A stretch of DNA of 64,000 nt from Escherichia phage vB_EcoM_VR7. A model generated the notes under the pieces. The model saw nothing but the letters and a program-made list of their open reading frames with translations, searched no databases and was not told the DNA's origin. Shown here piece after piece: positions 52,904 through 53,542 of the stretch. The stretch lies in sequence record NC_014792.1. One strand, given 5' to 3'. The translations under genes and the position numbers were made by a program. How positions within the stretch are numbered: position 1 is the stretch's first letter; each line of letters starts with the position of its first letter.

Positions 52904-53097
52904 TATTCATCTACGTGTTGGACACGTTTGTTTTTGTCAATAAAAGTATATTCAACATACTCGCCGATATACCACTTATCTACATTGTGCGGACTTTTTA
53001 TAGGACACTTGGTTGCCCGTGTTTCGGACCAGTGTCGAATAATTGTAGCTTTGTTTTTAGGGTCAAATGGGTGTGGATAATGTGCTTTCATAATCAA
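52879..53097 (-). CDS. hypothetical protein
   Basis: 72 aa. Confidence 0.4.
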   Translation of the reverse strand: MIMKAHYPHPFDPKNKATIIRHWSETRATKCPIKSPHNVDKWYIGEYVEYTFIDKNKRVQHVDEYCLKVQWL

Positions 53098-53542
53098 CTA
53101 CCATCAAATCAATGTCAGGAGTAAACATATCAATTAACCGGGAAACCTTATCCCAATCACCACCTGCAATACCACATCCAATCCTGGGAATATAAATCAC
53201 AGGCTTGAACAAAAGGGATTCTGCTTGTCGATTTAATTCTATCATACAATTTACTAAAGCGCCATAATCCAGATTTGGACCCGGTTCATACTGGGTATAA
53301 AGGTTATAGCACATACCAAATCCAGTTGGCTTATGTTTAAAAACGATAGACATATCACCGAGTTTTTCTCGGGAACCGTATTCAGTTGATGTTTTATCCA
53401 TTTCTAAAATTTTTGGGTAAGCCTTTGCCAGTTGGCCAGCAACGCCTGACCCCATTGTATGGAAACAATTACAGCCATGAGCTATGATGTTTCCTTCGAG
53501 AAAAAGGGCGACAATATCGCCCTTAATATAGTTAACAATCAT
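53063..53542 (-). CDS. macro-domain protein (ADP-ribose binding/processing)
   Basis: 159 aa; IVNYIKGDI...AHGCNC...GSGVAGQLAKAYP fits the macro-domain N-terminal signature. Confidence 0.55.
   Translation of the reverse strand: MIVNYIKGDIVALFLEGNIIAHGCNCFHTMGSGVAGQLAKAYPKILEMDKTSTEYGSREKLGDMSIVFKHKPTGFGMCYNLYTQYEPGPNLDYGALVNCMIELNRQAESLLFKPVIYIPRIGCGIAGGDWDKVSRLIDMFTPDIDLMVVDYESTLSTPI

Follow-up and report, generated by a model that had tools for sequence, protein, structure and literature searches.

A Tk.4/AdfM-type macrodomain in phage vB_EcoM_VR7 with a conserved glutamine in place of the DarG/TARG1 catalytic lysine

Results

A macrodomain gene orthologous to T4 tk.4

Here we describe a gene for a small macrodomain protein in a stretch of 64,000 nucleotides from Escherichia phage vB_EcoM_VR7 (NC_014792.1), which we call the window. 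The open reading frame (ORF) runs on the minus strand from 53542 to 53063, starts with ATG and consists of 159 codons and a stop. The protein encoded by this coding sequence (53063..53542) is a single domain that begins with MIVNYIKGDIVALFLEGNIIAHGCNCFHTMGSGVAGQ. It contains the motifs GDI, AHGCNC and GSGVAG, from which an earlier note on this DNA (the original prediction) had read a macrodomain protein of 159 amino acids near the thymidine kinase gene tk. The protein is indeed one: the Pfam profile Macro (PF01661) matches with 35 bits (E 1.5e-8) over profile positions 2–117 of 118. Since this score exceeds the gathering cut-off of 22 bits over nearly the whole profile, a chance match can be excluded. 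The gene tk (52118..52690, minus strand) lies just downstream, with two small ORFs, tk.2 and tk.3, in between.

The syntenic ortholog of the macrodomain gene in T4 is tk.4; the gene lies between vs and tk.3. The region is 99.7% identical to that of Escherichia phage vB_EcoM_VR26 (Straboviridae, Tevenvirinae, Gaprivervirus), in which the gene product is gp112 (YP_009213949), labelled in RefSeq as “phosphatase; similar to bacteriophage T4 Tk.4”. T4 Tk.4 is 58.7% identical to the window protein over 155 amino acids (E 6e-71). Annotated VR26 and T4T regions share the gene order regB-vs.1-vs-tk.4-tk.3-tk.2-tk. Like VR26, T4 belongs to the Tevenvirinae, and its protein has a similar length (155 amino acids compared to 159), the same residues H22, N25 and Q84 and the same glycine loops. 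It differs at about 41% of the residues, and the T4 cluster contains tk.1 whereas that of VR26 does not.

Homologs are widespread, being found by tblastn in 2,783 of 50,697 phage records. Their database labels vary (“phosphatase”, “hypothetical protein”, “O-acetyl-ADP-ribose deacetylase (regulator of RNase III)” and “macro domain protein”), and none of these labels reflects a role against the toxin–antitoxin defence DarTG2. There is only one macrodomain of this family in the window: when all window ORFs are scanned with a profile, the gene scores 221.9 bits and the next best ORF 5.6 bits.

The protein belongs to the ALC1-like macrodomains

The protein adopts the macro fold, in three layers (alpha/beta/alpha), and has two glycine-rich loops that bind ADP-ribose. 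In Foldseek the top ranks are taken by human TARG1 (also called OARD1; first, E 6.5e-10), yeast Poa1p, Bt_1257 and DarG. The fold comparison figures are 18.3 for Bt_1257, 17.3 for Mycobacterium tuberculosis DarG, 17.2 for Poa1p, 16.6 for T. africanus DarG and 16.4 for TARG1, and the next best, for other macrodomain types, is 13.6. A profile of the family run against the sequences of the Protein Data Bank (PDB) gives 76 bits for Bt_1257, 65 for TARG1, 62 for SCO6735, 59.5 for Poa1p and 50 and 45 for DarG. Hence the nearest neighbours in both structure and sequence are TARG1, DarG, SCO6735/Bt_1257 and Poa1p, not the MacroD, viral Mac1, PARG or macroH2A types. Because of the Foldseek and family-profile rankings we place the protein in the ALC1-like (TARG1/DarG/SCO6735) class, which settles the subfamily that the original prediction had left to be determined. 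The activity common to this class is the reversal of DNA ADP-ribosylation that is linked to thymidine (PMC9411070), and it also reverses uracil-linked ADP-ribosylation of RNA (PMC13036486).

Another profile, PHROG 335, also matches the protein (E 3e-70) and carries the name “phosphatase”. This label on the phage gene derives from the family of Poa1p, an ADP-ribose-1''-phosphate phosphatase (PDB 6LFQ-6LFU), and is probably misleading. The substrate of Poa1p is a small molecule, and the C-terminal half of the window protein matches Poa1p poorly (11.5 bits).

An invariant glutamine at the position of the catalytic lysine

Conservation was assessed in 121 phage-type homologs, a residue being counted where a homolog covers the column, and in the 80 best loci of bacterial relatives, which were selected by the family motifs. 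Four stretches of codons, all on the minus strand, stand out. The first encodes the motif H22-G23-C24-N25-C26 at the end of the active-site strand (53465..53479; homolog conservation and MAFFT mapping). H22, G23, N25 and C26 are invariant in all of the homologs covering these columns. The second encodes the first glycine-rich, phosphate-binding loop, G31-S-G-V-A-G36 (53435..53452; conservation and alignment), with G33 and A35 invariant. This loop aligns on MGKG/MGAG of DarG, TARG1 and gp104 of phage PhiKZ. The third encodes N80-L-Y-T-Q84 (53291..53305; alignments and conservation), of which N80, Y82 and Q84 are invariant (121/121); the Q84 codon reads CAG (53291-53293). The fourth, recognized by conservation, encodes the second glycine-rich loop, for the diphosphate and distal ribose, P119-R-I-G-C-G-I-A-G-G-D-W130 (53153..53188). 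This loop hardly differs from PRIGCGLAGG(K/T)W of Bt_1257 and SCO6735, and wherever a homolog covers the columns, P119, G122, G124 and W130 do not vary. The 80 bacterial relatives also all keep H22, N25 and Q84.

The position of Q84 sets the protein apart from two of its closest structural neighbours. NLYTQ aligns on NFPTK of DarG (hhalign) and on LITK of TARG1 and MIGQ of Bt_1257 (hidden Markov model (HMM) alignment), and MAFFT agrees. According to all three methods, Q84 stands in place of the catalytic lysine (K80 of Thermus aquaticus DarG, K84 of TARG1); MAFFT maps it to Gln85 of SCO6735. The catalytic dyad of TARG1, K84/D125, thus becomes Q84/A126. The original prediction depended on a macro fold and on catalytic and binding residues being in place. 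Fold and binding loops are there; the lysine of DarG and TARG1 is missing, replaced by an invariant glutamine that is essential in SCO6735 (Q85).

The same residues occur in SCO6735 and Bt_1257 (PDB 5E3B, 2FG1/2AFC), which carry a glutamine at the lysine position together with a supporting asparagine and histidine. A MAFFT alignment with the SCO6735 sequence (recovered from a PDB alignment queried with Bt_1257) maps H24 to H22, V25 to G23, N27 to N25, K34 to S32, Q85 to Q84 and K89 to G88. The likeness has limits. SCO6735 and Bt_1257, which are 54% identical to each other, are only 26–29% identical to the window protein, and in a neighbour-joining tree they form a clade separate from the phage clade. 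K34 and K89, which contact DNA in SCO6735, are replaced by S32 and G88. Between Q84 and Y93 the mobile loop has eight residues in the window protein, and likewise in 97 of the 121 homologs, as short as in DarG and TARG1, but 13 in SCO6735 and 14 in Bt_1257; a feature of the SCO6735/Bt_1257 subclass is that this loop exceeds that of DarG/TARG1 by about five residues (PMC9411070). That this protein has a lysine-less active site with the invariant, SCO6735-like set H22/N25/Q84 appears to be new.

Two lineages under the name AdfM

T4 tk.4 has recently been renamed adfM, and the name “AdfM” was independently given to PhiKZ gp104, which in vitro frees single-stranded DNA of the ADP-ribose added by DarT2 and whose activity is lowered by the mutation N23A (2026, Cell Reports; PMC13309987). 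N23 corresponds to N25 of the window protein (MAFFT). The two proteins are not closely related. PhiKZ gp104 matches M. tuberculosis DarG with E 9e-25, has the lysine motif FPTK and, in a neighbour-joining tree, groups within the DarG clade (bootstrap support 100%). The window protein matches DarG with only E 4e-6 and PhiKZ gp104 with only E 1e-3, over 31 residues. Judging from these comparisons, “AdfM” covers two lineages: a T4 type with a glutamine, closest to Bt_1257/SCO6735, and a PhiKZ type with a lysine, inside the DarG clade. The two types probably share a substrate and were probably acquired independently.

We also considered whether the window protein is itself a DarG, and rejected this. 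The macrodomains of DarG (T. aquaticus 5M31/5M3E, M. tuberculosis 5M3I) and PhiKZ gp104 have the catalytic lysine in FPTK, where the window protein has Q84. DarG also has a domain at its C-terminus that binds DarT, and its gene adjoins darT, whereas the window protein consists of the macrodomain and is encoded between vs and tk.3. The NCBIfam equivalog model of DarG (NF048014) gives 30.9 bits, compared to a cut-off of 250, and is matched over positions 2–147 of 338, its macro part. Catalytic lysine, C-terminal domain and operon context are all missing.

Bacterial relatives

Relatives are not restricted to phages. When one genome per bacterial species was scanned, at least 494 loci from many phyla emerged, the best 80 of which encode proteins 32–43% identical to the window protein. 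The same histidine, asparagine and glutamine are seen in relatives from, e.g., Ruegeria, Desulfobacter, Hyphomicrobiaceae and Verrucomicrobia. The 80 best loci share no conserved neighbouring gene, and no DarT2 homolog lies within 4 kb of them, as far as tblastn with a single DarT2 query can reach. Genes around them include rpoC, those of ribosomal proteins and ileS. The bacterial relatives are stand-alone genes like SCO6735 and not the antitoxin halves of DarTG operons. That the Tk.4 clade is an orphaned or captured DarG antitoxin is made less likely by the missing DarT2 neighbours, an argument that weakens the idea rather than eliminating it, given the limited reach of the query and the choice of the loci by family motifs.

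Neighbouring genes

The macrodomain gene overlaps the end of vs, the gene upstream of it: start and stop codon share bases in ATGA (53539..53542, minus strand), read directly from the sequence. This arrangement suggests co-transcription and translational coupling of the two genes. Within the end of vs, 12 nucleotides upstream of the ATG, direct reading also finds GAGG (53555..53558, minus strand), a possible Shine-Dalgarno sequence. At its 3' end the gene is overlapped by tk.3, by about 29–35 nucleotides according to the start codon chosen. The tk.2/tk.3 region (52700..53097) is of the VR26 type, without a tk.1 between tk and the macrodomain gene, unlike in T4. Two genes upstream of the macrodomain gene is a Vs.1 ortholog (53899..54441, minus strand) with a signal-like hydrophobic segment at its N-terminus; in related phages Vs.1 is annotated as an SLT (lytic transglycosylase) domain protein.

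About 5 kb away lies a gene for a NudE-like Nudix hydrolase (about 58684..59142, minus strand; Nudix box GHVEAGESPIEAAIRECEEETG), annotated nudE in VR26. T4 NudE hydrolyses ADP-ribose among other substrates. One could speculate that NudE disposes of ADP-ribose freed by the macrodomain protein.

The two ModA/ModB-like ADP-ribosyltransferases that the original prediction had placed at 11711..12930 are present. Both genes are on the minus strand: one of 215 amino acids next to srd (11711..12358) and one of 186 amino acids next to mrh (12370..12930). They match PHROG 832 (“RNA polymerase ADP-ribosylase”) with E 1e-38 and 2e-28, respectively, and are flanked by srd (10829..11575) and mrh (13396..13884), as in T4. 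By position, the 186-amino-acid ORF would be ModA and the 215-amino-acid ORF ModB. Pfam gives sub-threshold matches only (DRAT 20.1 bits, cut-off 25). Both proteins have the motif series R / S-x-S(T) / E-x-E, as FRG...SFS...EDE and YRG...SFT...ELE, which we take to be the motifs of arginine-specific transferases.

Discussion

That the gene resembles tk.4 is already part of its annotation, and a role of tk.4 in counter-defence against DarTG2 has already been published for T4. A T4 transposon library was grown on E. coli expressing DarTG2 (HIDEN-SEQ, preprint of November 2025), and tk.4 was the single significant hit (bioRxiv 10.1101/2025.11.20.689424). A clean knockout of tk.4 made T4 sensitive to DarTG2, and the gene was renamed adfM, for anti-DarT factor macrodomain; where DarTG2 is absent, T4 without tk.4 is viable (bioRxiv 10.1101/2025.11.20.689424). 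The authors of the preprint propose that AdfM removes ADP-ribose from DNA (bioRxiv 10.1101/2025.11.20.689424).

Together with the T4 genetics, our results make it likely, although not certain, that the window gene encodes an ADP-ribosyl glycohydrolase of the Tk.4/AdfM type, which undoes the ADP-ribosylation of thymidines by DarT2 on the single-stranded DNA of the phage and so allows the phage to escape DarTG2. The original prediction had left the function open between reversal of host ADP-ribosylation and degradation of a defence signal derived from nicotinamide adenine dinucleotide (NAD). The former agrees with the T4 genetics, with the amendment that DarT2 marks are on DNA and not on protein. 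Nothing supports the latter.

For VR26, orthology, fold and residue conservation point to the following course of events. The gene would be expressed, presumably early, probably from a vs–tk transcription unit. Infection would release the host toxin DarT2, which would ADP-ribosylate thymidines in TNTC motifs of the phage single-stranded DNA and block replication. The phage enzyme would then cut the N-glycosidic bond between thymidine and ADP-ribose, yielding free ADP-ribose and DNA that can be replicated, and the phage would escape.

How the bond would be cut is suggested by the known enzymes of the class. SCO6735, DarG and TARG1 all cleave thymidine-linked ADP-ribose on single-stranded DNA (PMC9411070); TARG1 also removes uracil-linked ADP-ribose from RNA. 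SCO6735 is a stand-alone macrodomain of Streptomyces coelicolor; it cleaves the thymidine linkage more rapidly than DarG and TARG1 do, and it rescues E. coli from DarT (PMC9411070). In this enzyme Gln85 occupies the lysine position; activity is lost in the mutants Q85A and Q85E and almost lost in N27S (PMC9411070). The mechanism proposed for SCO6735 is initiated by water, with Gln85, locked by Asn27, positioning the substrate (PMC9411070). Catalysis by the phage enzyme would probably follow this scheme and not the lysine scheme of DarG and TARG1. Q84, held by N25, would position the substrate for a water-initiated, oxocarbenium-like hydrolysis, while the two glycine-rich loops would hold the diphosphate and the distal ribose.

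Phage sensitivities fit this role indirectly. T2 and T4 are resistant to DarTG2 even without the anti-DarT genes adfA and adfN, whereas T5 is sensitive (PMC11825919). In the whole genome of T5 (NC_005859) we found no homolog, the best profile score being 8.8 bits in the pipeline that gave 221.9 bits for the window ORF. T5 sensitivity and the missing homolog are thus consistent with an anti-DarTG2 function. As a separate observation, T5 carries two genes annotated as Sir2, one of which, T5.105, looks unlike a sirtuin in sequence.

Several points weigh against this explanation. First, the evidence from T4 is genetic, comes from a preprint and concerns the ortholog rather than the window protein. 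Second, the protein lacks the catalytic lysine and the C-terminal DarT-binding domain of DarG, and it also lacks K34 and K89 (S32 and G88) of SCO6735 and the extended mobile loop of SCO6735 and Bt_1257. Since DNA-contacting lysines, DarG parts and extended loop are all missing, binding to DNA should not be taken for granted. Third, profile similarity to Poa1p is as strong as to DarG. Fourth, promoter-like sites in 52000-56500 number 16, compared to 13.4 ± 3.6 in shuffled sequences, and terminator-like sites 4, compared to 3.0 ± 1.3, neither of which informs the timing of expression. Fifth, relatives with the same histidine, asparagine and glutamine are common in bacteria, in housekeeping contexts and, in 80 loci, without a DarT2 homolog within 4 kb; their main substrate may thus be another one or the range broader.

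The last point can be taken further. The Tk.4 clade could be a third, undescribed branch of the ALC1-like class, with a glutamine centre like that of SCO6735, the short loop of DarG and TARG1 and no DNA-contacting lysines. Its members are widespread as stand-alone proteins in phages (about 2,800 records) and in bacteria, with a substrate range that perhaps extends beyond thymidines modified by DarT2. We offer this as a tentative idea that is rather less probable than not. If it were true, substrates could include uracil-linked ADP-ribose on RNA, the marks of other DarT-like toxins or ADP-ribose linked to glutamate and aspartate in proteins. A general nucleic-acid de-ADP-ribosylase, which phages acquired from housekeeping genes of bacteria and not from DarG, would then have protection from DarTG2 as one of its uses.

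One could also argue that the protein protects mainly by binding and blocking DarT2, as a mimic of the antitoxin, and that hydrolysis is secondary or absent. Dead mutants of SCO6735 (Q85A), DarG (K80A) and TARG1 (K84A) inhibit DarT in vitro, SCO6735 most strongly (PMC9411070), and for AdfA and AdfB, other anti-DarT factors of phages, direct interaction seems to be the mode of action (PMC11481870). For T4 Tk.4 itself the evidence is genetic. Yet we think this improbable, for the following reasons. H22, N25, Q84 and both glycine loops are invariant where covered in 121 phage-type homologs and 80 bacterial relatives, which is the pattern of an enzyme and not of a surface that fits one toxin. In these bacterial relatives there is no neighbouring DarT that could be bound. 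Finally, the domain with which DarG binds DarT is absent, the DarG model being matched over 2–147 of 338 only.

Equally doubtful is a hydrolase of small ADP-ribose derivatives, the “A1pp phosphatase”, acting on ADP-ribose-1''-phosphate or O-acetyl-ADP-ribose like Poa1p. The anti-DarTG2 effect in T4 would then be indirect or not shared by VR26. The case for such an enzyme rests on an old motif annotation and on N-terminal similarity to Poa1p, and it leaves a phenotype specific to DarTG2 unexplained.

It is very unlikely that the protein reverses ADP-ribosylation of proteins, either to tune the phage's own Alt, ModA and ModB marks or to remove those of a host transferase that targets proteins. 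The same genome does encode ModA/ModB-like transferases, and by mentioning them together the original prediction had implied a functional link to the macrodomain, for which we find no support. ModA and ModB are arginine-specific, whereas this macrodomain class acts on glutamate/aspartate, thymine and uracil linkages; we know of no report of arginine-ADP-ribose cleavage by any TARG1/DarG/SCO6735-class member. Because of this mismatch in linkages, and because 40 kb separate the macrodomain gene from the mod genes, which belong to a different gene cluster, reversal of ModA/ModB marks is unlikely. It is true that SCO6735 and TARG1 hydrolyse glutamate- and aspartate-linked ADP-ribose on proteins as well (PMC9411070), and that an arginine-specific macrodomain, MavL, is reported (PMC10951314). 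However, when DNA and protein compete, SCO6735 prefers DNA (PMC9411070), and tk.4 is dispensable where there is no DarTG2 (bioRxiv 10.1101/2025.11.20.689424).

Destruction of a NAD-derived immune signal (e.g., the cyclic ADP-ribose isomers of Thoeris) or reversal of CmdT-like RNA ADP-ribosylation is hardly credible: the Tk.4 clade is not known to be linked to cyclic ADP-ribose, the macro domain of ThsA is a distant match compared to the TARG1/DarG/SCO6735 group, the adenine-linked mark of CmdT is described as irreversible, and the defence by CmdTAC is strong against T4, a phage with tk.4 (PMC11618068).

There are consequences for how the protein should be studied and named. For enzymologists, mutants of the kind in which the catalytic lysine is changed to alanine are not applicable to the T4-type protein. 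The outdated label “phosphatase” could be replaced on many of the about 2,800 homologous phage genes. Gapriverviruses such as VR26 carry the gene with which T4 withstands DarTG2, and this is useful for predicting their host range on DarTG2-positive E. coli.
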